A stretch of 64,000 nucleotides of DNA from a virus, in IMG/VR virus record IMGVR_UViG_3300009130_000002. One strand, written 5' to 3'. The translations under genes were made by a program, and so were the position numbers. Below the pieces are notes generated by a model. That model saw only the letters and a list, made by a program, of their open reading frames with translations. It was not told where the DNA came from and made no database searches. Each line of letters opens with the position of its first letter. Position 1 is the first letter of the stretch. Positions 7,881 through 62,931 of this stretch are shown here, one piece after another.

Positions 7881-10343
7881 ATGAAAATTGAAAACTATGA
7901 GGAAGTGATTGAAAAAATCCTTCCACACCTACCAGAGTATCTAGATGAGCAGGGAATAGATCCCTCTAAATTATTTTGCTGCATAAATCCAGCACATGAT
8001 GACAAGAACCCTTCTTCGGGAGTGGTTCCTGGAGAAGATGTATTCCATTGCTTCTCTTGTGGTGCCTCAGGAAACATCTTTCATGCTGCACATTACCTAG
8101 AGAATAAGCCTCTAGTGGGTGTTGGTTTCATAACTGAGAACCTAGCATATCTTGCTGAGAAATACGGCTTAGAATTAAAGCATAAGCCTCTCACAGAGGA
8201 AGAGATCTATGAACTAGATACGTATCGAGCATATCAGAATGCATGCGACTACCTCACCATGGGCAACAAACCAGAGTTATTCGATCAAGCAATCGTAGAG
8301 CGTGGTTGGTCAGAGGATATCTGCAAAGAATATGGTGTAGGGAGTATTGGAAGCTACAGAGACTTCAGAGAACACATGAAGGATCTAGGCTTCACAGCAA
8401 GGTTCCAAGATGATGTAGACTTGGGCAGAAAAGAAATCTTTGGACCAGACAGGCTTGTCTTTACCATCAAAGATCCTGGTGGAAGAGCTGTCGGCTTTGC
8501 CTCTAGAAATCTAGAATACAAAGAAGATAGATCTAACGGTGCCAAGTATGTGAATCAAAAACATACAGGTGTTAAGTGTAATATCTACAAAAAGAGTACT
8601 CGTTTATACGGATTGGATTGTCTCCTTAAGAAGCGCAAGAAGGGTAAGCAATCAGTATATATATTTGAAGGTTATTCTGATGTAATTACTGCAGCTCAAC
8701 ATGGGCTTAAGAATACAGTAGGCCTTGGGGGTACAGCATTTAGTCTGGATCAATTGTTTTTACTTAAACAATACAATCTTTATGACATTATCTTGTGCTT
8801 AGATGGAGATGAGGCTGGACAGAATCGTATTGAATCTATTCTAGATACAACACTAGCAGGTCACAAAGACTTGAGAGTTCACATCATAATGATCCCTGAC
8901 GGTAAGGATCCTGATGAATTCATTAGAGAACAAGGTGTTGAAGAGTTTAAAAAGCTCAGAAAATGGACAGCTTTCGAGTGGAGATTGTCCAGGTTTGCAG
9001 AGGATGAAGACGAAGAGATCATCTGCAAGAATATGATCCCCCTTATTGTTAATGAGACCTCTTATATTGCACAAGAAAAAATGTGCGAGATCTTAGCGAA
9101 AGCCACAGGCATTAGCATCAAGGCAATTCAGTCAGAGCTGGAACGTCTACAAAACATTAGAGAAGCTGAGAAAGCTAGAGAACGTCAGAATATTACTGAC
9201 AAGATGGTCAACTTAATCCAGAGAGACCCATCACAAATTGAATTTGTATTACAGGATGCACTTAATGATTTATACAACTTGGCAAATAAATATGATGAAG
9301 ATAATTTCTCCGAACAATCCTGTCTTTCACTTGTCAGAGGAAGAAGAGAATACGAAGAAGCTAAAGATGGAAGCTTTAGTGGCTTTGTTTTGGGCCAGGA
9401 TTTAAAAAGACTAGAAAATGCACTAGCTGGAGACTGGAAAAAAGATGTTTGGTTTTGTCTGGGAGGGAATCCCAACGCAGGAAAGACAAGTTTTCTATGT
9501 AAAATGGCATTTGAAATTGCAAGACATAAAAAACAAAACGATGCATTGGTTATCTATCATAGCATTGACGATACAGCTGAGCAGCTTATACCTAAGTTTG
9601 TTTCTATTGCAGAAGGAAGCAGAGAGTTAACACTGAATCAGGTTATGGATCCTAATTACTATCTTAGAACTGGATATGGAGATGAGCTTTTAGAGAAAAG
9701 AGATATGGGATATAATGTATTTGAATCACTTATCGATGATGGAAGAATCATTCTTAGGGATGCAAACAATGGGAATAGTTTGTCCTATGCGGATGCACAG
9801 ATCCGACACTTTAAAAATAAGTATCCCAACAGAAACATTGTTTATATCTTAGATAACTTTCACAAGCTTCACGACTTTGGTGGTGGAGGAGATGAACGTG
9901 TTCGTTTCAAAAAGGTAAGTAACATGATGAAGAACTTGGCAACCAAGCATCACATCGCAGTTATCACTACTATTGAATACAGAAAGACACAGGGTGGTCG
10001 TAAGGCTACCAATGAAGATATCTCTGAGACAAAACAAATAGAATATGATGCCAACATCATTGCCCACTTGCACAATGAGGTGCATGAAAAGGGAGATGAT
10101 GCAGCAAAATTTCACACAGCTTTAGTTGAAGGTAATCCAGTACGAATGCCAATTATTGAATTAAATATTGGTAAAAATAAAGTAAGTGGATTTAAAAACA
10201 AACTATGGTTTGAATTCTACCCGGACTATTCAGACTTTAAGAATATAGACGAGAGCATTATTCTCGCTAAAGAAGCAGAGGCCGAAGAGAATGCAGCCAC
10301 TAGTTATGAGAAAGCAGGAGAAAGGAATAGTTTATTCGGATGA
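7881..10343 (+). CDS. Fused DNA primase-helicase (CHC2 Zn finger + TOPRIM + DnaB-like SF4 helicase)
   Basis: CINPAHDDKNPS...HCFSC; FEGYSDV, DGDEAG, KDPDE TOPRIM motifs; Walker A GNPNAGKTS; IEYDA and IGKNK helicase motifs. Confidence 0.92.
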   Translation: MKIENYEEVIEKILPHLPEYLDEQGIDPSKLFCCINPAHDDKNPSSGVVPGEDVFHCFSCGASGNIFHAAHYLENKPLVGVGFITENLAYLAEKYGLELKHKPLTEEEIYELDTYRAYQNACDYLTMGNKPELFDQAIVERGWSEDICKEYGVGSIGSYRDFREHMKDLGFTARFQDDVDLGRKEIFGPDRLVFTIKDPGGRAVGFASRNLEYKEDRSNGAKYVNQKHTGVKCNIYKKSTRLYGLDCLLKKRKKGKQSVYIFEGYSDVITAAQHGLKNTVGLGGTAFSLDQLFLLKQYNLYDIILCLDGDEAGQNRIESILDTTLAGHKDLRVHIIMIPDGKDPDEFIREQGVEEFKKLRKWTAFEWRLSRFAEDEDEEIICKNMIPLIVNETSYIAQEKMCEILAKATGISIKAIQSELERLQNIREAEKARERQNITDKMVNLIQRDPSQIEFVLQDALNDLYNLANKYDEDNFSEQSCLSLVRGRREYEEAKDGSFSGFVLGQDLKRLENALAGDWKKDVWFCLGGNPNAGKTSFLCKMAFEIARHKKQNDALVIYHSIDDTAEQLIPKFVSIAEGSRELTLNQVMDPNYYLRTGYGDELLEKRDMGYNVFESLIDDGRIILRDANNGNSLSYADAQIRHFKNKYPNRNIVYILDNFHKLHDFGGGGDERVRFKKVSNMMKNLATKHHIAVITTIEYRKTQGGRKATNEDISETKQIEYDANIIAHLHNEVHEKGDDAAKFHTALVEGNPVRMPIIELNIGKNKVSGFKNKLWFEFYPDYSDFKNIDESIILAKEAEAEENAATSYEKAGERNSLFG

Positions 10344-10585
10344 AAGATTTTAGAGTCAAACTAATGTTCATTGGCCTATTGGCAGCCATTGCACTAGCAT
10401 GGGGTGTAGCCAACTATGTACCCTCTATTATAGAGGCACAACAGCAATGCGTATCACCTAGAGTCATAGACGATATGTCAAAAGAACTTATGATCTGTTA
10501 TGAAAATATAGATAGATGCAATAAGTATTTTGAAGCATGTGTTAATACTTATTTGGGCTTAGATCCAAAAGAGGTAGTTCCATGA
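10340..10585 (+). CDS. Hypothetical protein with N-terminal TM/signal
   Basis: ATGA overlap; hydrophobic N-terminus. Confidence 0.55.
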   Translation: MKDFRVKLMFIGLLAAIALAWGVANYVPSIIEAQQQCVSPRVIDDMSKELMICYENIDRCNKYFEACVNTYLGLDPKEVVP

Positions 10586-11103
10586 ACATTTTTATTCTTG
10601 ATAAAGATCCAAAAACATGCGCCCAATATCATTGTGACAAGCATGTTTTGAAACAAATTCCAGATATAGCAAAAATATTATGCACAGTAATGAGAGAAAG
10701 TGGAATTCCCTACGGTTATACTTCAAGTACCCCGAATCACCCATGTGTAAAATGGGCAGCTGAGGCTGATGGAAATTTCATGTGGTTAAGAGAACTAGGA
10801 ATAGAGCTATGCAAAGAATATTCTTACAGGTATTCTAAAGGAGCTAACGGTGGTCATGCTTCCGAGCATATAATTTTAGACTCTTATCCTAAAAACCTAG
10901 GAGACAGAAACCAAAGAGCTAAAGTAAGAGAACCCGTGGGAATGACACCCCCAGTTCAGTGTGTCCCAGATCATTTCAAATGTAATGATCCAGTAAAGGC
11001 ATATAGAGATTACTATCTCGGAGAGAAATCAGACATTCTTTCTTACACAAAAAGAAATGTTCCCGAATGGATTGAAAAGATGGGAATGGGTGAACACAAA
11101 TAA
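10582..11103 (+). CDS. Pyrimidine-dimer DNA glycosylase/DenV-related protein
   Basis: MNIFILD..P..CAQYHCDKH, NHPC.KW, D.V.AYR.YY motifs of the phage PDG-like family. Confidence 0.75.
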   Translation: MNIFILDKDPKTCAQYHCDKHVLKQIPDIAKILCTVMRESGIPYGYTSSTPNHPCVKWAAEADGNFMWLRELGIELCKEYSYRYSKGANGGHASEHIILDSYPKNLGDRNQRAKVREPVGMTPPVQCVPDHFKCNDPVKAYRDYYLGEKSDILSYTKRNVPEWIEKMGMGEHK

Positions 11104-18348: not shown

Positions 18349-18801
18349 TTAACTCCTAACCTTGGGCTTCTTAGTTTTTCCTTTGGGAATAAAGCCTGGT
18401 TTTTTATAGTTTCCTTTGTGAGGAATCACGAATCTGACTCCTCCCGTGGGATCTTCTATATCTTTTTCATATCGTGGAATGATATGTATATGAAGATGGT
18501 CTATAGTCTGTCCAGCAGCTTTACCCAAGTTCATTCCAATATTATATCCATCAGGATTGTGAAGCTTATCCAGTATAGTCTTTATCGAATGCAAGGCAAG
18601 GAAGGTAGAGATGAATGTTCTTAATGGTAGGTCAAAGAGAGAAGCCATGTGCTCCTTAGGAATAAGCAACACATGGCCTTTATTTACAGGATATTTATCA
18701 TAAATGGCAAAGAAATATTTATCTTCCCAGAGAATTTTTCTATCAGGTTTACAAAATATGCAATCAGATCGTGCACTTATCTGAGTCGCAGTATTTGCCA
18801 C
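18349..18801 (-). CDS. HIT family hydrolase
   Basis: DCIFC, DKYPVNKGHVLLIPK.H, AAGQTIDHLHIHIIPR; start codon uncertain (in-frame GTG at 18801 used). Confidence 0.88.
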   Translation of the reverse strand: MANTATQISARSDCIFCKPDRKILWEDKYFFAIYDKYPVNKGHVLLIPKEHMASLFDLPLRTFISTFLALHSIKTILDKLHNPDGYNIGMNLGKAAGQTIDHLHIHIIPRYEKDIEDPTGGVRFVIPHKGNYKKPGFIPKGKTKKPKVRS

Positions 18802-23946: not shown

Positions 23947-24131
23947 GAGGATTCCTTTGCCTTTTCATCATCATTAGAAGGTTCAGGAAGTCCTTTGTGG
24001 ATACAGTATCCAGCACCTGCAAGAATAAATAATGGCCAAGCATGTATAAATAAATATAAAATGCCTACCCCAATTGAAATTCCAATTCCTAATGAGATTA
24101 AGTTAAAATTAAAGTTATTGTCTTTGTCCAT
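23943..24131 (-). CDS. Small membrane protein
   Basis: Two hydrophobic segments. Confidence 0.6.
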   Translation of the reverse strand: MDKDNNFNFNLISLGIGISIGVGILYLFIHAWPLFILAGAGYCIHKGLPEPSNDDEKAKESS

Positions 24132-26754
24132 TTTTTATATGGTCCAGTTTAGTTATAAAGTTTTCAATATTATCAATTGCAAAAGAATACAAGGGGTTGA
24201 ATTTTGTTTTGTCTTTAGCAATAAACGTTAAACAAACTTCACTTGTTGAGCCTTTATATTCCTTTACTAAATTGATAATTTTTTCCATATGTTCAATTGG
24301 GCATTCAATAACTGTTTTGCTTGCAGTGTCTAATGATTCTAACTCTAATGGTTGTATTTTTTCAATGATAAATTTAGTTATTTTTTCATTTTCTGTACTA
24401 GTAACCTCTGTTGAGCCAATAAAGACCAAGGGTACACCTTCTTGTAAGTGCTCCTTGCATCTTGTATAGTTCCGAGGAAAACAGACTGCTTCAATACTTC
24501 CCGTAAGATCTTCTAAAACAAAAAAGGCCATTTGTTTTTTAGATTTAGTTGTAATCTCTTTTATATTTGTAATTACTGCACCAAGATTAACTTTAATTTT
24601 GCCGGTAAATTCTTTTAAAGAATCTATACTAAAGAAATTTTTAGAATAATTTTTTGGATCAAAATTTCCAAGAGGATGATTTGTTATATAAAACCCAAGT
24701 AACTCATATTCAGCTTGATATAATTCTTTTTCACTTAGCTCTGGAAGACAATTAATTTCTGGAAACTCAGGTTCTTCTGGCATAACTGGAAGCTTAAAGG
24801 GCTTTAATGTTTTGCCTTTATCAGATAGTATTCCATTCTCAATATCATTTAGACGTTTATTAAATGCCTCTAATTTACGATGATAGGTCTCCATTTTTCT
24901 TTCATAGGATTTTTGATTTTTTCTGTAATCCCAGACAAGAGTAATGGCCTCTAACAAAGAGGCTCTACTTCTACCTAAAGAGTCGAAACAACCTGACTTA
25001 ACTAATGATTCAATTTTTAGCTTGTTGATAACAGAAAGGTCTACTCGCTGAGAGAAATCTTCAAAGTTTTTAAAAGGATTCCCTTCTCTCTCCTGCATGA
25101 TTGTGGCAACGGGAGTTTCTCCGAGGTTCTTAATGGGGCTTAATCCAAAGCGAATGTTATCATCACCATCAACATAAAATAAATTTTTACTTTTATTGAT
25201 ATCTGGAGGCAGAACATTAATCCCTATGCGACGACACTCTGCCAAGCACTTAATCATCTCATCTCTGTTGCCAGATTCAGAGATCATTACTGCACACATA
25301 AATTCTCTTGGATAATGAGTCTTTAACCATGCAGTTTGATATGTAATGTAAGCATAAGCTGCAGCGTGACTCTTATTAAATGCATAGTCACTAAAGGCAA
25401 CGATATCATCCCAGATTTTATTAGCCTTATCTAGTGGATAACCGTTAGCTTCCCAGCCTTTTTTAAAGGCTTCTTCTTGTTCTTTAAGGGTGTCGGTTTC
25501 TTTTTTTCCGATGGCACGTCTGAGAAGATCAGCATCGGCCATACTAAAACCAGCAAGCTGTTTAACAATTTCAAGGACTTGCTCCTGATAAATAATCCAT
25601 CCAGCTGTAGGTTGTAGAATGGGTTCTAGTTCTGGAATTAAATATTTTGGCTCACTATTGCCTGCTCTAATATCAAGATAGGTTTCTTTATAATCAGATC
25701 CTAAAGGACCAGGACGATAAATAGCAACCAAGGCAATAAGATCTTCAAGACAATCCGGTCTAATCTGAACAAGAAGGTCTCTCATACCAGAGCTTGCTTC
25801 TAATTGGAAGACTCCAGTTGCATTACCTTGCCTTAGGTTCTTGTAAGTTTCAGGATCGTTGAGATCAATAGAATCAATAGTAAAATCTCCCACGTTGTCA
25901 TGTCGTTCCTTAATTAAATCAACACATCTGTGGATTTTACTTAGAGCATCTAGTCCTAGGAAATCAAACTTGATCAGACCATACTGTTCAATGTTTTTCA
26001 TTTCCCACTGAGTGGTTACTTCTCCACTCCTACCTAAGAATAGAGGTACAGTATTGTGCAAGGAATCATTTGAGATAACAATTCCAGATGCATGTACCCC
26101 GGAACTGGAGATAATATCTTCCAGCTTACAAGCCCAGCGTAATGTTTCACCTTCAGGTCCATTTGATTTACTATATTGTCCTAATTTTTTAACTTTTTCA
26201 ATTGAAGTTTCTAATTTTTGTGGCTTACCATGAATAGGTTCTAGCAATAATCTAGAAAGCTCATCACCTACAGAGTAAGGATGTCCTAATGTTCTTGCAA
26301 CATTTCTTACCGCAGCCTTGGCTCTTTGTAAATTAAATGTTCCAATGTGGGCAACACGGTCGTCACCATATTTTTGAGTAACATAATCTATAACCCTATC
26401 TCGATATCGTTTCTCGAAATCAACATCAATATCAGGCATAGATAAACGAGCAGGATTTAGAAAACGTTCGAAAATTAACCCGAGTTTTATAGGGTCTAAG
26501 TTTGTAATCCCCAAACAATAACAACAGAGACTACCAGCTCCTGATCCTCGACCAGGACCAACATAGATATCGTTTTCTTTTGCCCAGTTAATAAAGTCTT
26601 GAACAATTAGGAAGTATCCAGAGTACCCCATCTTATGAATGACAGAGATCTCATAATTCAACCTATCTATATACTCTTGATCTGTATGTAAATTTTTATT
26701 TTTTAATCCGCTTAAGCATTTGAATTTAAAATAGTTATCAAGAGTTCTCCCCAT
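24115..26754 (-). CDS. dnaE: DNA polymerase III alpha (DnaE-type), polymerase core + OB fold, lacking the PHP domain
   Basis: YFLIVQDF, GPGRGSGAGSL, FERFLNP.R.SMPDIDVDF, KFDFLGL, FNKSHAAAY, LEDLTG. Confidence 0.95.
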   Translation of the reverse strand: MGRTLDNYFKFKCLSGLKNKNLHTDQEYIDRLNYEISVIHKMGYSGYFLIVQDFINWAKENDIYVGPGRGSGAGSLCCYCLGITNLDPIKLGLIFERFLNPARLSMPDIDVDFEKRYRDRVIDYVTQKYGDDRVAHIGTFNLQRAKAAVRNVARTLGHPYSVGDELSRLLLEPIHGKPQKLETSIEKVKKLGQYSKSNGPEGETLRWACKLEDIISSSGVHASGIVISNDSLHNTVPLFLGRSGEVTTQWEMKNIEQYGLIKFDFLGLDALSKIHRCVDLIKERHDNVGDFTIDSIDLNDPETYKNLRQGNATGVFQLEASSGMRDLLVQIRPDCLEDLIALVAIYRPGPLGSDYKETYLDIRAGNSEPKYLIPELEPILQPTAGWIIYQEQVLEIVKQLAGFSMADADLLRRAIGKKETDTLKEQEEAFKKGWEANGYPLDKANKIWDDIVAFSDYAFNKSHAAAYAYITYQTAWLKTHYPREFMCAVMISESGNRDEMIKCLAECRRIGINVLPPDINKSKNLFYVDGDDNIRFGLSPIKNLGETPVATIMQEREGNPFKNFEDFSQRVDLSVINKLKIESLVKSGCFDSLGRSRASLLEAITLVWDYRKNQKSYERKMETYHRKLEAFNKRLNDIENGILSDKGKTLKPFKLPVMPEEPEFPEINCLPELSEKELYQAEYELLGFYITNHPLGNFDPKNYSKNFFSIDSLKEFTGKIKVNLGAVITNIKEITTKSKKQMAFFVLEDLTGSIEAVCFPRNYTRCKEHLQEGVPLVFIGSTEVTSTENEKITKFIIEKIQPLELESLDTASKTVIECPIEHMEKIINLVKEYKGSTSEVCLTFIAKDKTKFNPLYSFAIDNIENFITKLDHIKNGQRQ

Positions 26755-27226
26755 GTCTTTTTCTTTCTAGCTCCTCTAGGAACCAGTTACGCATCCAGGT
26801 TTTGGGCCAAGGATATAAATAATGTTTTGATAGTAATTTTACAACCCAATCAACATCTGTTTCGTTTTCAATGTTGGCTTCAAGATAAGCTTCTCGTTCA
26901 AATTTCCACCGAAAATAAGAGAACAAGAACGGCAAGGGACATAATAAGTATAAAAATAAGTATAGCGGAACTCCATATTGATTATATTGTTTTACATGTA
27001 CCATCTCATGCTTAACTATCTTGTAGTGTCTAATAGATAGTGGAGACTTAACTCCTGTTGGATAGTAAATCTTATTACCAATTGTAGTCCAAAGATTTGT
27101 CATAAATGCAGGATAAATCAAGCCGATAATTCGCATTAACAAAGAATTCTTCTTATTGATAAACTCTACATCTTCATCAATATATCCACCAAATCCCTTT
27201 TTAACTCGTAAGGTCACTCTGCGCAT
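26738..27226 (-). CDS. HExxH Zn-metallopeptidase-like protein lying between the two dnaE halves
   Basis: KHEMVHVKQY...FEREAY; TM-like segment; start at MRRV after AAAGGGA. Confidence 0.65.
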   Translation of the reverse strand: MRRVTLRVKKGFGGYIDEDVEFINKKNSLLMRIIGLIYPAFMTNLWTTIGNKIYYPTGVKSPLSIRHYKIVKHEMVHVKQYNQYGVPLYLFLYLLCPLPFLFSYFRWKFEREAYLEANIENETDVDWVVKLLSKHYLYPWPKTWMRNWFLEELERKRHGENS

Positions 27227-28241
27227 TCCCTTTACTCCATTCTCTAAATTGTTCATAGTCTGGTTCTTTAGTGATATCAAAATAAGGCATCTGATATTCT
27301 CCTAAAGTAATATTCAGGTTGCACATCTTAGGAATCTCTAAGGTATTATAAAAAGATTCCTCTGAACCTATTTTTTGAGCGGCTTCAAGCATTTCTTCAG
27401 GAGATCTGAGGTAAACACCGTCACCATATACATCAGTTTTATTACACCCATCTTCGTCACCTTCATACTCATCAAGAGTCTTTTTAAACTGCTGTGCCAT
27501 GATTAAATTGTGTGCTCGCTTGTCTTCCTTTGTTAAGAAGTGAGCATCAGCAGTAATAACAAGAGGAATATTTTCTGTTTTAGATGTTTTAATTGCCCAG
27601 TTATTAAATTTTTGCTGAGCTGGCATAATATTATCTTGTATTTCTAGGTACAATCTCCCATCAAAGATATCATAAAGCTTATTTAGTCTTTTTAAGGCAA
27701 ATTCTTGATAATCATAAGGTTTTAGTTTTTCATTAACATAATTTTGCATTGCTAAATCGTATTCTTCTTGAGATAACCCTTTTCTTGTGGGTTTTTTAGG
27801 GAATCCCTTCTTTGCAATGACTCCTCCGAGACAAGCAGTCGTAGCAACAATGCCTTCAGCTCTTGTTTCGAAATGCTTTTCCCAAATTCGTGGTTTATAA
27901 TAAAAATTATGTAAATTTGCTTGGTTTGTCATCCAAATAAGATTCTCAAAACCTTTTTCATTCATGGCTATGAGAATCATATGGTTGTTGTCTTTAGTTT
28001 TGACTTCAGAGTCGTCAGGATCTTCTGTGACGTAAGCTTCGACACCAACTAAGGGGTTGATTCCATATTTCTTTGCATGTTTGTAGAACTCAATAGAGCC
28101 GTGCATAACACCATGATCAGTAAGAGCACAAGAACTCATGCCTAATTCGACTACTCTTTGACAGAGCTTGTCAATTTTATTTAAACCATCAAGGATACTG
28201 TATTCTGAATGAACATGTAGGTGACAAAAGTCTTGAGACAT
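27201..28241 (-). CDS. dnaE: DnaE N-terminal PHP domain encoded as a separate gene
   Basis: HLHVHSEYSILDG, TDHG, GVEAY, H, TACLGG, DAH; start at MSQD by TAATG coupling. Confidence 0.92.
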   Translation of the reverse strand: MSQDFCHLHVHSEYSILDGLNKIDKLCQRVVELGMSSCALTDHGVMHGSIEFYKHAKKYGINPLVGVEAYVTEDPDDSEVKTKDNNHMILIAMNEKGFENLIWMTNQANLHNFYYKPRIWEKHFETRAEGIVATTACLGGVIAKKGFPKKPTRKGLSQEEYDLAMQNYVNEKLKPYDYQEFALKRLNKLYDIFDGRLYLEIQDNIMPAQQKFNNWAIKTSKTENIPLVITADAHFLTKEDKRAHNLIMAQQFKKTLDEYEGDEDGCNKTDVYGDGVYLRSPEEMLEAAQKIGSEESFYNTLEIPKMCNLNITLGEYQMPYFDITKEPDYEQFREWSKGNAQSDLTS

Positions 28242-28477
28242 TACTTCTTTTTTTCTTTCTTTTCTATTGCTGCATAGTGAACCTGTATAGTTACTTCGCA
28301 AGCAAGTTTCCATAGATCCTCATAAGAGGAAACAGCATAGCCTAAAGGAATGTAGGTGGTTTCACTTGTAAATTGTACAAGTAGTAAAGTTCCATCCTCT
28401 TTTCTCACTATACTTATGTTGTATTTAGATAATAAACTAGCCATGCCTAGCTGGCTATAAAGCGCATCATCCCCCAT
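28241..28477 (-). CDS. Hypothetical protein
   Basis: Stop overlaps the PHP-gene start. Confidence 0.55.
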   Translation of the reverse strand: MGDDALYSQLGMASLLSKYNISIVRKEDGTLLLVQFTSETTYIPLGYAVSSYEDLWKLACEVTIQVHYAAIEKKEKKK

Positions 28478-31013: not shown

Positions 31014-31233
31014 TTGATTCTCTTGGTTCGAAATTAGATTCTAGTGAGAACAGGATGTCCTCTGCATGTGCGAGTTGTTCTGCAAAGCCTGCAACGGTTT
31101 CTAGCATATCAGGGTGATCTGCTACACCTACAGGAGCCTTCATAAACACCTGCATATTTGCAATTGCTTCTAATTTCTTTGCTTCATAGCGAGCTTTCAA
31201 TGCTTGATACATCGGATTGTTCAATAAATTCAT
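31006..31233 (-). CDS. Conserved phage hypothetical protein
   Basis: AL...Y.A....A.AN..V.....VGVADHPD motif familiar from large phages. Confidence 0.65.
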   Translation of the reverse strand: MNLLNNPMYQALKARYEAKKLEAIANMQVFMKAPVGVADHPDMLETVAGFAEQLAHAEDILFSLESNFEPRESNE

Positions 31234-32251
31234 CAGTTTCTCCTTCTAAAGGGAGTGGAACCCCTTGTAAGATTTGTTCAATCTCTTTATACACATTAGG
31301 GTTTTCTTGTAAATAGGTAGAGGTTTTTCCTTTACCTTGACCAATATTGTCCCCTTTATATGAAAACCAAGCACCTGCTTTTTTGATAATGCCTTCGCTT
31401 GCAGCAGAATCAATAAGATCTGCACATTTATCAATCCCTATACCATATTGAATAGTAAACATGGCATCTCTAAATGGCGCAGCTACCTTATTCTTTACAA
31501 TTCTAGCTCTAGTTACATTGCCAACAAACTCAACGTCTTTGCCTGTACCTTCTTTGAGCTTTTCTACTCTTCGGACATCAACACGTTGACTAGCATAGTA
31601 TTTAAGAGATTCTCCTCCAGATGTGGTCTCTGGATTGCCAAACATAACACCAATCTTCATTCTCAATTGATTAATAAAGATAACTGTGGTCTCATTTGCA
31701 TGACTGGTTGGAGCAAGCAAACGCATTGCTTGACTCATTAGGCGAGACTGTCTTCCGACATGATTGTCTCCAATATCGCCATCTACTTCTGCCTTGGGAG
31801 TTAAAGCCGCTACAGAATCTATAACAACTAAGTCTAAAGACCCTGTCTTAATTAATTCTTGTGCTACCTGAAGTGCTTCTTCTCCATGGTTTGGTTGAGA
31901 AAAGATTAGGGCATCTATATCAATTCCAATTGCTTCTGCATAAATAGGATCAAAAGCATGTTCCATATCGATAAAGGCTGCAAAGCCTCCTTCTTTTTGT
32001 ACCTCTGCGATAGCATGCAAGGCAAGTGTTGTTTTACCGCTAGACTCGGGACCATAAATTTCAACGATCCGTCCTTTAGCCCAGCCACCTCCAAGAGCCT
32101 TGTTTAAGCTGTAGCACCCTGAAGATAGCTTCTCAATCTTAGGGATATCATTGTCTCCAAAAATAACAGAACCTACACCAATGGTATTGTTGATATTTTT
32201 GATAGCAATTTTAAGTGCCTCTTCTTTTCCTACGGGTGCTTTCTTAGCCAT
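31184..32251 (-). CDS. recA: RecA recombinase
   Basis: GRIVEIYGPESSGKTT, VVIDSVAAL, FINQLRMKIGVMFGNPETT.GG, KNKVAAPF. Confidence 0.97.
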   Translation of the reverse strand: MAKKAPVGKEEALKIAIKNINNTIGVGSVIFGDNDIPKIEKLSSGCYSLNKALGGGWAKGRIVEIYGPESSGKTTLALHAIAEVQKEGGFAAFIDMEHAFDPIYAEAIGIDIDALIFSQPNHGEEALQVAQELIKTGSLDLVVIDSVAALTPKAEVDGDIGDNHVGRQSRLMSQAMRLLAPTSHANETTVIFINQLRMKIGVMFGNPETTSGGESLKYYASQRVDVRRVEKLKEGTGKDVEFVGNVTRARIVKNKVAAPFRDAMFTIQYGIGIDKCADLIDSAASEGIIKKAGAWFSYKGDNIGQGKGKTSTYLQENPNVYKEIEQILQGVPLPLEGETDEFIEQSDVSSIESSL

Positions 32252-39976: not shown

Positions 39977-40546
39977 TTATCCTTCTAAAATATCTGAAAT
40001 CCTTTTCATATTACAGTTTTTATAGCTTTTTGTTTCTGAGGAGCCATAAGGTAATTCTATTCTTCCAAAATAAATTTGTCGCTGGTAGTCACTATGTAAA
40101 GCAATAAGTTTTCCGTCTTCCAGCATGTGTTCATTTTTTAAAATTAACTTAGAGATTAATTTTGGAATATATCCAATTTCTTTCCAAGTTTGTATAGAAA
40201 AACCAGGAGGAGATTTACTGCTATCTTGGAATACAATTCCAATTCTTACTGCAAATTTATCATAAGGATTACTGGGTTCTGGTTTTAAGATTACTTTATG
40301 AGTTTTTCCTAAAGGATATTTCTTTTTCTCAGAGTTAAAAGAGATAGCTTTTTGATACATTGATCTGTATAAAATTGAACGGTTAACACCTTCGCTATTT
40401 CTTTGAGTATATCCTGCTGGAATTATATAAAGTTTTTGTTTTTCAGTGTCGTCAACGATTCTGTTTCTCCAGTAAATATTGCTATCAAAGCCTGCTGGAG
40501 AAATAAATCCTTGTGAAAGTTCTTCTAATGGAGTAATTAATTTCAT
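39977..40546 (-). CDS. HIRAN domain protein
   Basis: VILKPEPSNPYDKFAVRI...IGYIPK. Confidence 0.8.
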   Translation of the reverse strand: MKLITPLEELSQGFISPAGFDSNIYWRNRIVDDTEKQKLYIIPAGYTQRNSEGVNRSILYRSMYQKAISFNSEKKKYPLGKTHKVILKPEPSNPYDKFAVRIGIVFQDSSKSPPGFSIQTWKEIGYIPKLISKLILKNEHMLEDGKLIALHSDYQRQIYFGRIELPYGSSETKSYKNCNMKRISDILEG

Positions 40547-41222: not shown

Positions 41223-41570
41223 TTACGCAGTGTGCCATTGCGCTTGTTTTAAATGCAGAAAATTCTTTTCTGTTAATTTCAATTGAGGAATTGGATTATT
41301 AAATCCTTCAGGTTTAATACTTGAAAAATCAGCAGTTCTGATTAAAAAGACTTCCCCAGATTTTATTAAATTTTCCCAATGATTTTTTCTATCTTTTGGG
41401 ACGAACATGTTTGCATGATAGTAGTGAATCTTGTGGAAACCTTTTCCTTTATCTTTTATTGGCTCTTGACTTACAACATCAAAGCTCGCGAAAAATCCTT
41501 GATCATTCCAAGGTACAAATTGTAATTTGGATTGAGAAGGAATTGCTACTAAACCATTACATTGCAACAT
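41223..41570 (-). CDS. Probable OB-fold (SSB-like) protein
   Basis: Beta-strand pattern, F.VV, Y...MFVP; weak resemblance only. Confidence 0.4.
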   Translation of the reverse strand: MLQCNGLVAIPSQSKLQFVPWNDQGFFASFDVVSQEPIKDKGKGFHKIHYYHANMFVPKDRKNHWENLIKSGEVFLIRTADFSSIKPEGFNNPIPQLKLTEKNFLHLKQAQWHTA

Positions 41571-42273
41571 CTTTATTCTCGTTAAATTTTAAGGAAAGAA
41601 GCCTATTCCACCAGAGTCGATTTTGTTGGCTAACTTCACTGTGTTCTTTTTCCCATCTAAATAGATCTGTATAGCCTTCTACTTCAATAAAGGTTTTTAA
41701 TCTAATTGCTTGCATTGATTTGGTATAAATACCATATTGTCTGGGAGAACATGCTGTTTTTAAGACTTTCAGAAGTCTATAAAGATAAAGTACGTCTCCT
41801 GCAGCATATTCTAATTGTCTAGAAGATAATTTCTCTTCATCCCATTTAGAATGATCAATTCTCTTATTAATGTGAATATCTAAGATATTTTTTAAAGAAT
41901 TGCCTAAACCAGAACTATATTGAGGGAATGCGATTTTCATTAAAGTTTTGGTACAATGAATATCTGTTCCTAGTTCTGTCATTAAGCCCATTTTCAAAAA
42001 AGCTAAATCAAAAGCTGCATTATGGAAAATAAATCCAATATCGCTTCTTTCTAGTAGTTGTATTAATAACTGGCTATTTGAATCTGGTTTTTTGATAATA
42101 AAGACTTCCCCAGATATAGTAGCGATTTGAACTAAAAACAAGGAGTTGTCTCTATAGTCTAAACCCCCTGTTTCTGTATCAATAGATAAGTATCGCTCTA
42201 TACTTAATCTTTCTAAGATTTCTGGTGTTAAATCTAAATCATATACTTCTAAGCTTTTGAGGCCTTTCATCAT
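41557..42273 (-). CDS. DEDD 3'-5' exonuclease (RNase D/PolA proofreading-like)
   Basis: SIDTET, FHNAAFD, HCTK, YAAGDV. Confidence 0.88.
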   Translation of the reverse strand: MMKGLKSLEVYDLDLTPEILERLSIERYLSIDTETGGLDYRDNSLFLVQIATISGEVFIIKKPDSNSQLLIQLLERSDIGFIFHNAAFDLAFLKMGLMTELGTDIHCTKTLMKIAFPQYSSGLGNSLKNILDIHINKRIDHSKWDEEKLSSRQLEYAAGDVLYLYRLLKVLKTACSPRQYGIYTKSMQAIRLKTFIEVEGYTDLFRWEKEHSEVSQQNRLWWNRLLSLKFNENKDVAM

Positions 42274-42293: not shown

Positions 42294-42911
42294 CTAATGA
42301 TTTGAGACTCCTAATAAATTTTGAGCCATATCATTTGCTTGCTTGAGTTCAGGAGTGCTGTTTCTTGGTTTCCAATTAAAGGTAACAGAAGTCTTAGGAA
42401 GACTTTGTGCTAATTCCAGAATCAAGTCTCTTTTGTGTTTCAATTTTTCATCATTACATTTCTTATGACCGTTTAATTGATCTACGACCAGTAAACTGTC
42501 TGAAATTACATTAATAGGAACTGTGATATTTGCTCCACCACACAAATCTATTAGTGCTGATAAAGAGAAAAATATTGCATCATATTCTGCCTGATTGTTT
42601 GTGTTAGCTTTGCAAAAACGAGCAGTACTTAAGTTGGCTTGTTCTTTTTTTGCAAAATCAATAACGAATCCAACAGCAGATGGACCCCCAGGATTTTTAA
42701 GAATAGAGGCATCACATGAAATAGTGATACAGTTACCATACAAAGAGTTGATTTTTTGAGGAAGTGGATCTTCCTCCTCTAACCCTAATGCTATTGTTTG
42801 TATTTTTTCTAAAAAATCATATGTGCTATTTAAAATTACTTTTGTAGAATTAAAATAGTCATCAATCATTGATGCTATAGCGAATAAGCGTTTATTTTCT
42901 TCGCTTTGCAT
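42294..42911 (-). CDS. rnhA: Ribonuclease HI-like protein
   Basis: CDAS...NPGG, TNNQAEY.A, SDSLLVV.QL.G, W.PR..N/S...AN.MA. Confidence 0.85.
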   Translation of the reverse strand: MQSEENKRLFAIASMIDDYFNSTKVILNSTYDFLEKIQTIALGLEEEDPLPQKINSLYGNCITISCDASILKNPGGPSAVGFVIDFAKKEQANLSTARFCKANTNNQAEYDAIFFSLSALIDLCGGANITVPINVISDSLLVVDQLNGHKKCNDEKLKHKRDLILELAQSLPKTSVTFNWKPRNSTPELKQANDMAQNLLGVSNH

Positions 42912-42912
42912 T

Positions 42913-43434
42913 TCAGCCCCATTTTAACATTTGAGGAACTGCTGCTTGAAGCAGTTCTTTCATCACAATTAATTCATCTCCAGAAAGTGGAACTTGATGT
43001 GATTTGGTATTTCCTGCTGCAGTATAAGAAGCTCGAACCATACACCCATTAATTGTACCTTTGGGAGATACAAGGTTAAGGTTCTTTTTAACTAGGCCCT
43101 GAGACTCGCTCTTTGCCCCTGGATCGTGCATAATGCTGCATTCTTGACCTGTGTATAGGGAATGAAGAATCTTCCCCACATCGGTCACTGAGAGCGCTAA
43201 AACAATCTTATTTTCCCAGTCATAAACATTTCGATCTTTAGTGCTGGTAATTTCCATGAAAATTGTTCCTTCTCGGATTTTCCATCCATCACGTAAGGAG
43301 CCATTTTCCATAGCTTCATATCCGGTATAATCTTTATTTTTACCAGAATAGAAATGTGGAGGTTGTAAATTCAATTGAATTGCTCCCCATTTTCCAGCCA
43401 TCCCTTTGTAAATTGCATATTGTAGAGGTCTCAT
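42913..43434 (-). CDS. Whirly-family ssDNA-binding protein
   Basis: AIYKG, EG, YDW..K....LSVT..G.I, C...HDP, G.V.K.L, P....E, P..L.W: same order and similar spacing as the plant Whirly domain, recalled from memory. Confidence 0.75.
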   Translation of the reverse strand: MRPLQYAIYKGMAGKWGAIQLNLQPPHFYSGKNKDYTGYEAMENGSLRDGWKIREGTIFMEITSTKDRNVYDWENKIVLALSVTDVGKILHSLYTGQECSIMHDPGAKSESQGLVKKNLNLVSPKGTINGCMVRASYTAAGNTKSHQVPLSGDELIVMKELLQAAVPQMLKWG

Positions 43435-43435
43435 T

Positions 43436-43774
43436 TTATTCCCTTTCTTTTATATTGGTTTTTTCGTAATCATTAAACCAGTTTGTAACTTCAAGTCCTT
43501 GAAGCATGAGTGCAGTTCCAACTGTAGGATCTGTGTAGTATTTCTTTTTGAGGCTATCTATATCTGGTCCTGTTGTTTGATGACCCTCAATAGCAGCCCC
43601 AAGGGAATAACCTAAATTTCCATAAACTACAAGTAATTCTCCTACTGTAGGACGATATTCTTGAAATAATCCTAATAATTTTTCTAATAATTCAGAAGAT
43701 CTTTCAGGATCAAATTGTAATGTTTTTTGTGGATTTTTATCTATTTTTGACATTAAAGTTCCAGTTGTTCCCAT
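43436..43774 (-). CDS. Hypothetical protein
   Basis: Co-oriented ORF. Confidence 0.65.
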   Translation of the reverse strand: MGTTGTLMSKIDKNPQKTLQFDPERSSELLEKLLGLFQEYRPTVGELLVVYGNLGYSLGAAIEGHQTTGPDIDSLKKKYYTDPTVGTALMLQGLEVTNWFNDYEKTNIKERE

Positions 43775-45364: not shown

Positions 45365-45577
45365 TTAATCTCCCATATGTTTAATTTTAAAATAATTTGC
45401 TAAATCTTTGATTTTTTGAACAAAACTATCTAATTCGATTTTTTTCTTGTTTAAGTTTTGATTTTTATAGATGTAGTTTAAATAACTACTAGCTTGCGCA
45501 ATTGTAAGGCCTAATTCGTCTTTTTCAATATCTTTAATGTTATTTTCTATAATTTTTTCAAGGTTAGGATCAGTCAT
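45365..45577 (-). CDS. Hypothetical protein
   Basis: Overlaps the iscS end. Confidence 0.55.
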   Translation of the reverse strand: MTDPNLEKIIENNIKDIEKDELGLTIAQASSYLNYIYKNQNLNKKKIELDSFVQKIKDLANYFKIKHMGD

Positions 45578-46652
45578 AAAGTAATTCCTTAATAGTATTA
45601 GTTAATATAATTACACCTTTTTCAATTTCTTCCCATGTATTCTCAGGTGACAAAGAGATACGAATTGTTGATAAAGCATCTTCTGGTTTTATCTTCATGG
45701 CAGACAAGACATGTGAAGGAACAATTTCTTTGGAATTACATGCAGATCCAGCAGATACAGCAAGGCCTTTATCGCTTAATTCCATTAGTAATTCTGATGC
45801 ATCAATTCCTTTAAATCTTATGCTCATTATTCCGGGAAGTCGCCGAATAGTTTTAATATTATATTTATAATCTACTTTCAATTTTTTTATATAATGTGTT
45901 AATCGTTTTTTAAAGAACTGCTCTTTAAGTATTGCATCTATTTTTCTTTGATTAAGATTTAAAGAAGCTAATGTTTTTGCAAATGCATAAGCTAAAGGCA
46001 CTTGAGGAGTTCCTAAGTAAGGAAGCTCGAATTCAACATCGTTTTTTACCCATAAACAAGCAATCCCCTTTGGGGCTCCAAATTTGTGACCTGACATAGT
46101 TAAAAAGTCACATTGCATTTTTTGGACATCTATAGGTAATTTTCCAGCAGCTTGAACTGCATCTATATGATAAAGGGCTTTTTTGAGTTTTGGTTTTATA
46201 ATATCAATTGGTTGAATTACGCCAGTTTCATTATTGACATAAAGAATAGAAAATAACTTTGTCTTATAAGTTATTTTATCCTGTAATTCTTTAATACAGA
46301 TTAACCCATTATTTAAAGGGTTAATCATATTGTCTTCTCTGCTATATTTGTAGATAGATTTATGTGCTGTATTCATGCAGATAAATGAGTCTGAAGACTG
46401 GGGCGCATATCTAAGGGCATTTTTTATTACGAAATAATTAGCTAAAGAGGCACTGCTCATCCAGAAAATTTTTCCGTTATGTCCATTTATGTGATCTTTT
46501 ACTAAATTCTCTGATTCTAGTAGGATTTTTTTCGCTTCAAGGCCTGAAGCATGTATGCTATTTGGATTAGCATAAGGAGCTTTTTCAATTGCAAGTAATG
46601 CAATTGGTTTAATAGGGGTTGTTGCTGCATGATCAAAATAGATCATATTCAA
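45570..46652 (-). CDS. iscS: Cysteine desulfurase (IscS/NifS, PLP-dependent)
   Basis: YFDHAATTP, NNETG.IQP, DAVQA.GK, SGHKF.APKG (PLP Lys), SAGSAC (catalytic Cys), PSHVL.AM. Confidence 0.92.
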   Translation of the reverse strand: MNMIYFDHAATTPIKPIALLAIEKAPYANPNSIHASGLEAKKILLESENLVKDHINGHNGKIFWMSSASLANYFVIKNALRYAPQSSDSFICMNTAHKSIYKYSREDNMINPLNNGLICIKELQDKITYKTKLFSILYVNNETGVIQPIDIIKPKLKKALYHIDAVQAAGKLPIDVQKMQCDFLTMSGHKFGAPKGIACLWVKNDVEFELPYLGTPQVPLAYAFAKTLASLNLNQRKIDAILKEQFFKKRLTHYIKKLKVDYKYNIKTIRRLPGIMSIRFKGIDASELLMELSDKGLAVSAGSACNSKEIVPSHVLSAMKIKPEDALSTIRISLSPENTWEEIEKGVIILTNTIKELLYD

Positions 46653-46658
46653 TACCTG

Positions 46659-47246
46659 TTATAAAAAATTCTGCCAATAATCATTTTGAACTCTATCAAA
46701 AGGTGTCCCTATATGTGATTTCCATTCTGGAGCAATAGGTTTTTTTAAAAGTTCCCATCCAAGTTGATCAAGTGTTTGACTTCCTTTCCTACCATTACAG
46801 TATTTGCAGGAAGTTACAACATTTTCCCAATTACTTTTTCCACCTTTACTCTTCGGATGTACGTGATCTAAAGTTTTAATACTTGTTTTGCAGTTTGTTC
46901 CACAATATTGGCACTTATTATTATCTCTTTTATAAATATTGTGTCGTGAATATTTAACTGTTTTAATGATGTCAATTCCTGCATTAGTATCTATTTTGAC
47001 AACACGAGGTATATAAATGCTAATAGAAGGAGAAGAGACCTTTCCAACATATTTTGAAGCTTCAAAAGGGAAACTATCTAATATTTTCGAATGCTCTACC
47101 CATTCTGTTAAATTTCTTACAGTGTACTGTTCATCTACTACGGTAGCTTTGCCAGTATATAGGGCGCAAATAGCATCTTTTGCTATCCCTACTTTTACAG
47201 CTAAAAAATACTTATTTAATATTAAAACTTCGCTACAGAGACTCAT
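46659..47246 (-). CDS. HNH endonuclease
   Basis: VLILN, RD..KCQYCG, TLDHVHPKSKGG...W.N.V..C..CN..KG. Confidence 0.9.
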   Translation of the reverse strand: MSLCSEVLILNKYFLAVKVGIAKDAICALYTGKATVVDEQYTVRNLTEWVEHSKILDSFPFEASKYVGKVSSPSISIYIPRVVKIDTNAGIDIIKTVKYSRHNIYKRDNNKCQYCGTNCKTSIKTLDHVHPKSKGGKSNWENVVTSCKYCNGRKGSQTLDQLGWELLKKPIAPEWKSHIGTPFDRVQNDYWQNFL

Positions 47247-48066
47247 ATCTTAATTTTTTGTGAAAAAAGTAATCGCTTAATTTATGGTAAGTAACTTCAT
47301 CAATAGATCTTATATAGGCTAAATATCCTCTTGTTACAGGATCTATTTCTTCTTTATTTAAGGCAAGAGTGTTTAACCTTGCTCTTATTAGTCTTTTTAT
47401 TTGTCTTCTAGAAATAGAATCAAGACTTACTCCTGCTACAATTTTAGCATCGTTATTGCCTCGACCATACCATTTTGTTTTCTTTTTATTGATTGGAAAG
47501 CCTGCGCTTTGAATCATTCCTTTGATTAACTCAATTAATCTCCATTCTCTTTCATTTGCTTTTGTAGATAAGTTTAAGTCGTCCATATATCTTGTATATG
47601 TGTAACCATTTCTACTAGCTGCTTGACTTACATAATAATCTACAGAAGTTAGAACAATATTGCATATAATTGGACTGGTTGGAGCCCCAGTTGGAAGCAT
47701 TCCTCTTCCTTGCCATTGAATAAAACAATAATCTAAATTATTTAGCATTTTTTGTTTAATAGCCCCATCTGGGAAATTATTATCAATAGCTTGATGTGCC
47801 ATAAATGGAGTAATATTTTGATAGCAATTAGAAATATCTACTTTCAATAGATATTTTGCTCCTAAATGAGGAAGGGCAGCGTCAATAGGACCACTTCCCT
47901 TTTTACAAGAGCAAGCCTCATGTAGGGGGAAATGTTCATAAAGTTCTATTAGAGATTTTTGTTTTTGTTTAAGTTCTAGAGAAGGTTGTTGAATTAATCT
48001 TTTCTTAGGAGAGTTCTTTTGACCGATGTAATAAATATCATAATTTTTTTGGATTCTTTCTTCCAT
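47233..48066 (-). CDS. Reverse transcriptase, retron-type
   Basis: R.I..P...LK..Q; DAALPH (NAxxH-like); KVDISNCY; LPTGAPTSP...N; YTRYMDDLNLS; N.KKT; VAGV (VTG-like). Confidence 0.88.
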   Translation of the reverse strand: MEERIQKNYDIYYIGQKNSPKKRLIQQPSLELKQKQKSLIELYEHFPLHEACSCKKGSGPIDAALPHLGAKYLLKVDISNCYQNITPFMAHQAIDNNFPDGAIKQKMLNNLDYCFIQWQGRGMLPTGAPTSPIICNIVLTSVDYYVSQAASRNGYTYTRYMDDLNLSTKANEREWRLIELIKGMIQSAGFPINKKKTKWYGRGNNDAKIVAGVSLDSISRRQIKRLIRARLNTLALNKEEIDPVTRGYLAYIRSIDEVTYHKLSDYFFHKKLRYESL

Positions 48067-52055: not shown

Positions 52056-52403
52056 TTAGAAAGGAACATTTTGTTGATTAAAGTTAGATGGAGATTGTGG
52101 TTGAGTTGTATTTCCAGTCACTGAATTATATTTTTCAATTACCATTTGGGTTACTTTTGTCTGAAAATCAGCATCTTTAATTACCCAAGAAGGATAGAAA
52201 ACTTGTTCGGTTCCACCTTCTTCATTTTTCTTCTCACCAAATCGTCCGTCTGCACCTACAAACAAACCATTCTTTCCATTCCAAAGTTTACCATTTAAAT
52301 GAACGCTGTCATTATAGGTAATGCGACAATTTGCCTTTAATTTAGAACCTGGTTTTGGATTCTTAAGAGGCCAAACTTGCACTTCTGTTACTTCTAAAGT
52401 CAT
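52056..52403 (-). CDS. SpoVG-like nucleic-acid-binding protein
   Basis: EVT.V.V.P......LKA...IT..D.....G......NGLFV......K.....F.P. Confidence 0.7.
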   Translation of the reverse strand: MTLEVTEVQVWPLKNPKPGSKLKANCRITYNDSVHLNGKLWNGKNGLFVGADGRFGEKKNEEGGTEQVFYPSWVIKDADFQTKVTQMVIEKYNSVTGNTTQPQSPSNFNQQNVPF

Positions 52404-60202: not shown

Positions 60203-60592
60203 TTAAGCTTTAATTCCACTTGTGATATCTTTTGATAATTCAACAATTTCTTTATATAGATTTGCAAGTTCAGTATCTAAAGCTTTTCTTGCATTTGTTA
60301 CTGAATCTACATGAGCAGTTACCATCATATTTTCTAATTCTTTTTTAAAAGAATTTCCTTGAGCGATTTTAGATAAAAGTTGTTCATCTATATCTACATC
60401 CTTGATGATTCCATGATTATCAACATGTACGGTAACTAATCCTGCTCCAGCAGTACCTGTATAAGTAGAACTAGCTAATTTAACTTGGATATCTGTTACA
60501 ATTTTTAAAAATCTTGCTCTATAAGGTTCTGGAATCTTAGATATTTCAGTATTAAAAAGATTAGATGTTAATGCTTCAAAGTTCATAGTCAT
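60203..60592 (-). CDS. YbaB/EbfC-like nucleoid-associated protein
   Basis: TGTAGAGLVTV.V...G.I..V.ID..L......LE.....A...A. Confidence 0.75.
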   Translation of the reverse strand: MTMNFEALTSNLFNTEISKIPEPYRARFLKIVTDIQVKLASSTYTGTAGAGLVTVHVDNHGIIKDVDIDEQLLSKIAQGNSFKKELENMMVTAHVDSVTNARKALDTELANLYKEIVELSKDITSGIKA

Positions 60593-61903: not shown

Positions 61904-61990
61904 TGGTGCTTCGGGCCGGAGTCGAACCGGCACGCTTTTCACGGCGACGGATTTTAAGTCCGTTGTGTCTACCAATTCCACCACCGAAGC
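61904..61990 (-). tRNA. tRNA-Leu(TAA) with long variable arm and encoded CCA
   Basis: GCTTCGG/CCGAAGC acceptor; ACGGA-CT-TAA-AA-TCCGT anticodon arm; GGTTCGAC T-loop. Confidence 0.97.
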
Positions 61991-62931
61991 TACTCTTTAA
62001 GCTTATCTACTACTGTTTGTATTAAATAAGAATTCTCATATATATATTGAGTTGTTGCGGATACAAGAGCTTTCATATTCTTTTCGCTTGCATTATCCAT
62101 TTTCCTTAAGTTTTCAGGAAGATCGAATTGCAATCTAGTATATGTTCCTCCGTCAGCTTCACATAGAGTTTTGGTTTGATGATTAATAGCATCACCAATT
62201 CCATCTAAGATGACATCGCTAACTGGAGAAGCCCATTGCATTAAGCCCCATTTTTTTGTTTGTTCATAAGGGTATAGTTCTCCATAATGCCCATTTCCAA
62301 TAGAAATAATATCCACTTTAGCATTTCTATTTTTCTTTTTGGTTAAGGTATATGCAGATAATGCTGGGTTAACAGCAAAAATTCCACCATCAATAAGATT
62401 GAACATGTTGTTTTCTGTTCTTGCTTGGACAGATGGAAAGTAAGTAGGAACACTTGAGGTTCCCATACATACTTCTACCATTTTTACATATTTGGTAGTA
62501 TCTTCTTTGCTAGAAAAAACAACTGGCCAACCTGATCTTAAATCATAAGTACAAAGGATAACTTCAATAAGGGCTTTATCTAGAGTAGTTTCTCCAAACT
62601 TCTCTGTTAGCACCTTTTGAAGTCCATCAATAGGATACTTTGGTCCAATCAATCCCCATAATGTTTTGACTTTATGCCAAAAACTACTACTAAAGACTTC
62701 TGTTCCTAATACATTATATGTATCAATAATGTCTTGAGTGTTATATTTGGGATTACCATTTTCATCTGGAATAGCTAAACCACACGAAATTAAACCTCCA
62801 GTTGAGGTTCCTGTTAAAACATCAACATATTCATGTATAGGTTTATCTAATCTAGACTCAATTTCTTTTAAAATAGTTGAACCTACAATTCCTTTGATTC
62901 CACCTCCATCTATACTTATGATTTTTACCAT
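61990..62931 (-). CDS. Patatin-like phospholipase
   Basis: DGGGIKG, GTSTG (GxSxG), S.PTYF, DGG...NP. Confidence 0.92.
   Translation of the reverse strand: MVKIISIDGGGIKGIVGSTILKEIESRLDKPIHEYVDVLTGTSTGGLISCGLAIPDENGNPKYNTQDIIDTYNVLGTEVFSSSFWHKVKTLWGLIGPKYPIDGLQKVLTEKFGETTLDKALIEVILCTYDLRSGWPVVFSSKEDTTKYVKMVEVCMGTSSVPTYFPSVQARTENNMFNLIDGGIFAVNPALSAYTLTKKKNRNAKVDIISIGNGHYGELYPYEQTKKWGLMQWASPVSDVILDGIGDAINHQTKTLCEADGGTYTRLQFDLPENLRKMDNASEKNMKALVSATTQYIYENSYLIQTVVDKLKE

Follow-up and report, generated by a model that had tools for sequence, protein, structure and literature searches.

Whirly proteins have been described as plant-specific or unique to plants in papers up to 2026 (PMC9070903, PMC6963530, PMC12230644, bioRxiv 10.64898/2026.10.24.761589). 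The plant members act on single-stranded DNA (ssDNA) in organelles: StWHY2 is a tetramer that binds ssDNA non-specifically and melts DNA (PMC7549692, PMC3245945), and homologous recombination in chloroplasts involves cooperation between WHY1/3, RNase H1C and RecA1, all of which are recruited to shared sites (PMC8266629). In vitro, purified Whirlies boost the strand-exchange activity of organellar RecA (AtRecA), an effect not seen with canonical mtSSBs (bioRxiv 10.64898/2026.10.24.761589). Some proteins with a Whirly fold prefer RNA, among them MRP1/2 and ChmC, a homotetrameric nucleic-acid-binding protein of nucleus-forming jumbo phages that is built from beta-beta-beta-alpha repeats and carries a disordered, N/G-rich, condensate-forming C-terminal tail. 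The corresponding domains of Shedu and Menshen serve as sensors joined to nucleases; like ChmC, they were identified through structure alone and lack sequence similarity to Whirly. It is thus already known that Whirly-fold phage and defence proteins exist, and databases already auto-label certain phage proteins as Whirly (A0A6J5NR37 and Uroviricota entries in the ESM Atlas). In targeted literature searches we found no paper on true phage or archaeal Whirly members. What the locus described here adds is a conserved cassette of Whirly and an upstream gene that we call u112, a parallel between a phage Whirly/RNase H/RecA set and that of the chloroplast, and an archaeal branch of the family.

The locus lies in a 64,000-nucleotide stretch of viral DNA, the whole of which was analysed and is called the window below (IMG/VR virus record IMGVR_UViG_3300009130_000002). 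It covers only part of a genome that measures at least 150 kb; the source replicon is a large uncultured marine tailed phage. The genes around Whirly, all in the same orientation, are as follows:

46659..48066, minus strand: retron-type reverse transcriptase (RT, 47233-48066) with an HNH nuclease (46659-47246)
43436..43774, minus strand: u112, an acidic four-helix protein (pI 5.0), conserved as the upstream partner of Whirly
42913..43434, minus strand: Whirly-family protein of 173 aa, pI 9.0, recognised from the ORF list, PF08536, its fold and its motifs
42294..42911, minus strand: RNase H (type 1) of 205 aa (PF00075, E=1.5e-7; phrog_531)
41557..42273, minus strand: stand-alone DEDDy 3'-5' exonuclease of 238 aa (PF01612, E=1.1e-21)
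39977..40546, minus strand: HIRAN-like protein (Pfam 23.1 bits, just below the cut-off of 24.7)

In the ORF listing of the window the Whirly frame has borders at exactly 42913-43434. An earlier note on this DNA had read it as a Whirly-family protein in a phage, and the reading is borne out. The protein matches Pfam PF08536 (Whirly) at 66.2 bits (E=3.5e-18; gathering score 23), over profile positions 27-135 of 136, and the only other match in the Pfam scan was weak and spurious. All of the motifs quoted in the note are present (AIYKG, EG, YDWENKIVLALSVTDVGKI, C..MHDP, QGLVKKNL, VPLSGDE and P.ML.W). PHROGs holds no family for the protein. Among PDB sequences, significant phmmer matches were confined to plant Whirly proteins, six solved plant WHY sequences, with AtWHY2 at 1.3e-10, StWhy2 at 4e-10, PBF-2 p24 at 6e-9 and WHY3/WHY1 at about 1e-7. 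An AlphaFold2 monomer model, with 61 homologues as input, reached a pLDDT of 96.2 and a pTM of 0.88 and has the two four-stranded antiparallel sheets, each followed by a helix, that characterise the Whirly fold. Superposition on plant WHY likewise agreed with the note: Foldseek placed the model on StWhy2, WHY1 and WHY3 with E of about 1e-12 and TM of 0.78-0.83, and VIA-align gave Z of 19-20 over 153 residues at an rmsd of 2.1-2.3 Å and 24-28% identity. The Pfam, PDB-sequence and fold evidence together rule out a chance or frame artefact. The protein matches none of PF00436 (OB-fold SSB), PF08804 (gp32) and PF10991 (gp2.5-like); its fold is Whirly, not OB.

The gene encodes a bare Whirly domain, which begins 5 residues ahead of strand 1 and stops 1 residue past the conserved tryptophan, and neither an N-terminal transit peptide nor an acidic or aromatic C-terminal tail is seen in the model and alignment. 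We aligned it with Solanum and Arabidopsis WHY2, Nicotiana WHY1, a moss, chlorophytes, archaeal members and phage forms. Residues common to phage, plant and archaeal members are Y9, K10, G56, Y71, W73, K76, H103, D104, K117, E154 and W172, and the window protein has Y9, K10, Y71, D72, W73, K76, H103, D104, P105 and W172, positions that are at least 90% conserved across phage, green-lineage and archaeal sequences. It hence keeps the family-wide motifs, namely YK in strand 1, YDWxxK, HDP and the C-terminal W, and a C-terminal helix predicted at 152-169 is conserved in the alignment. In plant WHY the KGKAAL motif is required for ssDNA binding and for assembly of 24-mers, which its second lysine drives. 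In all aligned phage members this motif is split by an insertion of 4-5 residues (YKG-MAGKW-GAIQL in the window protein), and between strands 2 and 3 the phage forms have a beta-hairpin made of about 20 additional residues. Given that KGKAAL is also reported to be missing from green algae and Marchantia (PMC9070903), the motif marks a plant subgroup and not the Whirly family. The window protein is a Whirly-family member outside the higher-plant WHY1/WHY2 subgroup, and because of the split motif and the insertion its binding mode and cooperativity may differ from those of the plant proteins. The protein is basic, its pI of 9.0 is also the family median, and this value is no more than compatible with ssDNA binding. 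As a separate observation, the strand 2-3 insertion holds four cysteines (CxC..CxxC..C-like) in the P0183 and P0159 clades (L017:10001-10630, L020:3882-4403), which suggests a zinc knuckle grafted onto the Whirly fold.

The fold alone would also allow the protein to work mainly as an RNA-binding regulator of phage transcripts, as ChmC does in nucleus-forming jumbo phages. ChmC and MRP1/2, which share the fold, bind RNA, as does plant WHY1 (PMC9070903), and in VIA-align MRP1/2 reach a Z of 14.9 with the window model. This is clearly below the Z of about 20 for the ssDNA-binding plant WHY proteins, however, as is the 8.4 of Pur-alpha, and the identity to MRP1/2 is 8%, compared with the 24-28% to plant WHY. 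The model has no disordered condensate-forming tail like that of ChmC, and the neighbouring genes encode enzymes of DNA metabolism. We regard a mainly RNA-directed role as highly improbable.

The RNase H and the 3'-5' exonuclease, which the earlier note had placed beside Whirly, are both real. The Whirly ATG follows the u112 stop codon after 1 nt and the RNase H start codon lies 1 nt past the Whirly stop, the spacers reading TAA-A-ATG and TGA-A-ATG with SD-like motifs. The genes for u112, Whirly, RNase H and the exonuclease are probably co-transcribed. Candidate catalytic residues of the RNase H are D67, E109, D138 and D194, and the exonuclease carries the motifs DxE (32-34), NAAFD (85-89) and YxxxD (156-160). 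The HIRAN-like gene is a further conserved, co-oriented member of the block. At stalled forks, HIRAN domains bind the 3' ends of ssDNA, and a protein of this kind would suit a fork or repair module. The whole arrangement, ClpP-u112-Whirly-RNase H-exonuclease-...-HIRAN-like-...-Ycf46-type AAA, is conserved down to about 45% Whirly identity.

A synteny table made by tblastn over all fetched loci identifies u112, rather than RNase H, as the most constant neighbour of Whirly. In 17 phage loci the gene immediately upstream of Whirly is a u112 orthologue, even in the most divergent loci (L015, L004 and L017/L018), where Whirly identity falls to 28-34%. The ORF upstream of Whirly in L020 was also considered as an orthologue and did not align. 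The u112 model (pLDDT 82) consists of four helices and gave no match in Pfam, PHROG, PDB sequences, Foldseek or a Foldseek-independent VIA fold search. No UvsY-like match appeared, and a Rad52-fold annealase is excluded by the all-helical model. Its constant position makes u112 a candidate partner of Whirly. RNase H follows Whirly in 9 distinct loci (L001, L003, L005, L007-L012) and is absent next to it in L006, L013, L014, L015 and L017, and the position of the exonuclease is conserved in L001, L003, L007, L009, L010 and L012. In the closest relative (L007:6535-7160 / L016:8535-9160) the RNase H is only 43% identical to that of the window (42294-42911), and the flanking genes are 67-94% identical, most of them 76-94%. 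The RNase H slot thus seems to have been replaced or to be evolving much faster than its flanks.

The RT and HNH pair lies 3.2 kb upstream of Whirly in the same orientation, and a comparable pair is found 3-6 kb upstream, again co-oriented, in L001, L003 and L005 as well as in the window. Together with the RNase H that adjoins Whirly and the presence of an RT in 4 of 5 Whirly-bearing IMG/VR records, this would fit a Whirly that serves a retron-like RT by binding its ssDNA product while the RNase H removes the RNA template. However, a NifS-like gene, ClpP and several further ORFs, all of them unrelated, intervene between RT and Whirly, and it is u112 and not the RT that accompanies Whirly most constantly. 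Whirly is also kept where no RT is detectable, both in the 91%-complete record G001 and in L017, which has none in the 10 kb upstream. Hence, service to an RT appears very unlikely.

Beyond the Whirly block, the window contains the following replication genes and cargo:

31184..32251, minus strand: RecA, bacterial-type (PF00154, E=4.5e-109)
24115..28313, minus strand: split DnaE-type Pol III alpha (PHP ORF 27201-28313, core 24115-26754)
7881..10343, plus strand: DnaG-DnaB fusion primase-helicase
10582-11103, plus strand: DenV-type pyrimidine-dimer glycosylase (cargo)
60203-60592, minus strand: YbaB/EbfC DNA-binding protein (cargo)
52056-52403, minus strand: SpoVG-like protein, just below the cut-off (cargo)
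18349-18903, minus strand: HIT hydrolase (cargo)
61990-62931, minus strand: patatin-like phospholipase (cargo)
45570-46652, minus strand: NifS/IscS-like aminotransferase (cargo)

The phage genes of the window further include baseplate and fibre proteins, RNR and a ClpP-type protease that resembles a head protease. PhoH, MazG, two nucleases (one Cas4-like, the other an SbcD-like exonuclease) and two tRNAs are also present. Between the PHP-domain ORF and the DnaE core ORF lies an ORF of 180 aa. Among 50,697 records of GenBank phages, neither tblastn of the Whirly protein nor megablast of 14 kb around the gene gave a match, and the DnaE core shares no more than 40% identity with that of any cultured or deposited phage. 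The relatives comprise nine IMG/VR contigs and metagenomic contigs that reach about 205 kb. In relatives (G001, G002, L006) the genes for RecA, DnaE, the AAA ATPase and RNR are interrupted; long open frames contain the RecA matches in split form, and AAA ATPase and RNR have intein/LAGLIDADG matches.

A cellular host gene was considered and rejected. The single cellular match was contig NZCX01000010.1 (L016, 61,922 bp) of the DPANN archaeal MAG 'Candidatus Pacearchaeota archaeon isolate ARS1160', with a Whirly protein 94% identical to that of the window. PF08536 occurs in 1 of 401 genomes of the Pacearchaeota phylum, the one that holds this contig, apart from one sub-threshold match with internal stops, and the contig corresponds to an IMG/VR viral record; it is therefore probably a phage contig and a binning error.

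RecA and DnaE are present in all five of the Whirly-bearing IMG/VR records, in which Whirly identity ranges from 34 to 94%. In the same five related viral records, one of which is 91% complete, there is no PF00436 over threshold, no PF08804 gp32 and no PF10991 gp2.5-type protein. Neither did hmmscan of nearly all window ORFs of at least 100 aa reveal a canonical SSB in this partial genome. One candidate, ORF 10582-11103, which matches phrog_624 ('DNA binding protein'), turned out to be the DenV-type glycosylase. These absences, and the position of the gene in the replication region, would agree with Whirly being the sole replicative SSB of the phage, a non-OB-fold stand-in for SSB or gp32 at the DnaE lagging strand. 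Against this, Whirly has no acidic C-terminal docking tail of the kind used by SSB, gp32 and gp2.5, a host SSB could serve instead, and the 91%-complete record holds a weak OB-fold candidate (L021:1414-2031, 14.6-15.8 bits to PF00436, no SSB PHROG). Moreover, our six-frame family search with PF00075 missed an RNase H known to be present in G005, so divergent members escape it, and given that the genome is visible only in part, the missing SSB is weak evidence. We consider a sole-SSB role possible, though on the unlikely side; Whirly may instead be accessory to another SSB. The earlier note's broader reading of the protein as a phage SSB analogue is plausible. Family membership, fold, synteny and co-occurrence are directly established.

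The reading that we prefer, and hold to be likely, is that of an ssDNA-binding Whirly that acts in phage replication and recombination. From the plant proteins and the gene neighbourhood we infer tetramer formation, ssDNA binding and a link to RecA and RNase H. Homology with plant WHY1/2/3 makes a homotetramer most likely; it would bind ssDNA without sequence preference and coat it at forks, resected ends and R-loops. In this way it would assist replication and repair that depend on RecA and are driven by recombination, and would keep illegitimate annealing down. RNase H would remove RNA:DNA hybrids or primers, and the exonuclease would process 3' ends by trimming or proofreading. The setting would be the replication/recombination region of a phage that brings its own DnaE, DnaG-DnaB primase-helicase and RecA. 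The phage encodes the trio of Whirly, RNase H and RecA; Whirly and RNase H are adjacent, and the RecA gene lies 11 kb away. The presence of the three in one phage genome parallels the WHY1/3-RNH1C-RecA1 set of chloroplasts, and RecA is the proposed functional partner of Whirly. Points against the preferred reading are the distance to RecA, the loci that have no RNase H next to Whirly, the split KGKAAL motif with the insertion between strands 2 and 3, and the RNA preference of some Whirly-fold proteins. The analogy with T7-like organellar enzymes that the earlier note had drawn is a misfit for this phage, given that its replisome, which includes RecA, a DnaG-DnaB fusion and a DnaE-type Pol III alpha, is of the bacterial type.

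Searched exhaustively with phmmer, 1.84 billion cluster representatives yielded 332 clusters with E<=0.001. About 100 of them (clustered at 50% identity), short and free of targeting peptides, outrank the first eukaryote, Tetraselmis, and distant short forms lie in phage-like contexts with RNR, dUTPase, ThyX, ClpP and T4_Y16D. A cellular archaeal PF08536 clade also emerged (L026:6473-6964, L022:2745-3728), with only 17 clusters. Its genes stand beside ribosomal proteins S8e, S3Ae and S15, TFB, Trm1 and TrmB in L026 and beside FEN1 and a PIN gene in L022, and the S3Ae of L026 was placed near Thermoproteota or Thermoplasmatota in the ESM Atlas. One archaeal member has a long P/Q-rich N-terminal extension. 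No bacterial cellular homologue was seen; the scan of cellular genome contigs used one peptide pattern, by which cellular genomes are under-sampled.

In a maximum-likelihood tree of 70 rows (LG+C20+F+G4, unrooted), a branch with support 88/93 has the green-lineage sequences and four unknowns on one side and the phage and archaeal sequences on the other. The archaeal clade is supported at 100/100 and groups weakly with some phage clades, and the window protein falls in an 8-member phage clade at 97/88. Holding all phage rows together costs 4.9 log-likelihood units and is not rejected (AU p=0.335). The eukaryotic, phage and archaeal branches fit three clans on the unrooted tree, and because the tree has no root the direction of transfer is open. 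For the same reasons the phage origin of organellar Whirly, at which the earlier note had hinted, is unsupported as stated.

Transfer from phages to plants is compatible with the far greater diversity of the phage sequences and with the lack of bacterial cellular homologues, and the cellular archaeal branch is a further possible source. A tentative scenario, which we judge doubtful overall, is that Whirly arose in prokaryotic viruses (or archaea) and that the ancestor of green plants took it over to maintain its organelle genomes, so that u112-Whirly-RNase H-exonuclease together with RecA would be ancestral to WHY-RNH1C-RecA1. The reverse would be a single capture of Whirly by phages from a green alga or an archaeon, with phages not the donors to plants. 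The eukaryotic cluster and the phage set can each form one clan, so a single transfer fits in either direction, and a cellular archaeal clade with weak ties to some phage clades does exist. However, the phage members are far more numerous and divergent, the phage-specific partner gene u112 is present in deep branches, no bacterial cellular homologue was seen and bacterial phages have little chance to acquire algal genes. We find such a capture unlikely.

A true relative of Whirly in phages makes both its mechanism and its origin testable there. With a large, deeply divergent phage branch and a small archaeal one, the origin of an abundant nucleoid protein of plant organelles becomes testable phylogenetically. 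Being compact and having neither targeting peptides nor tails, the phage and archaeal versions are handy for biochemical and structural studies of the Whirly tetramer on ssDNA and of its assistance to RecA. In addition, phages of the window type may replicate with a non-OB-fold SSB, and u112 offers a concrete starting point in the search for a new accessory factor.

Among known systems, OB-fold SSB (PF00436), T4 gp32 and T7 gp2.5 probably share the role of coating ssDNA in replication and recombination, but their fold is unrelated and the window protein has no acidic tail of their kind. ChmC (PhiPA3 gp61, Chimalliviridae) and the sPC4/Whirly-fold N-terminal domains of Shedu and Menshen belong to the same broad fold superfamily; compared with the published description of ChmC, the window model differs in having no disordered tail. 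Trypanosome MRP1/MRP2 and Pur-alpha have a Whirly-like fold but differ in their low identity (8-10%), their Pfam families and their binding of RNA or GGN repeats. Auto-labelled phage members of the same family are the 'Whirly transcription factor' entries of uncultured Caudovirales, such as UniProt A0A6J5NR37 with only 25% identity to the window protein, and the 'Whirly transcription factor domain-containing protein' clusters of the ESM Atlas (Uroviricota). The plant organellar WHY proteins (StWHY1 = PBF-2 p24, StWHY2 and AtWHY1/2/3; 1l3a, 3n1h, 4koo, 4kop, 4koq) share PF08536 and the fold over its full length. In contrast to them, the window protein is phage-encoded and has a phage-specific upstream partner, u112; it has neither transit peptide nor acidic or aromatic tail, its KGKAAL is split and it carries the additional hairpin between strands 2 and 3. 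Like them, it has YK at strand 1, YDWxxK, HDP and a C-terminal helix that ends in W, and as in the partner set of chloroplast WHY, a bacterial-type RecA and an RNase H are encoded in the same phage genome.
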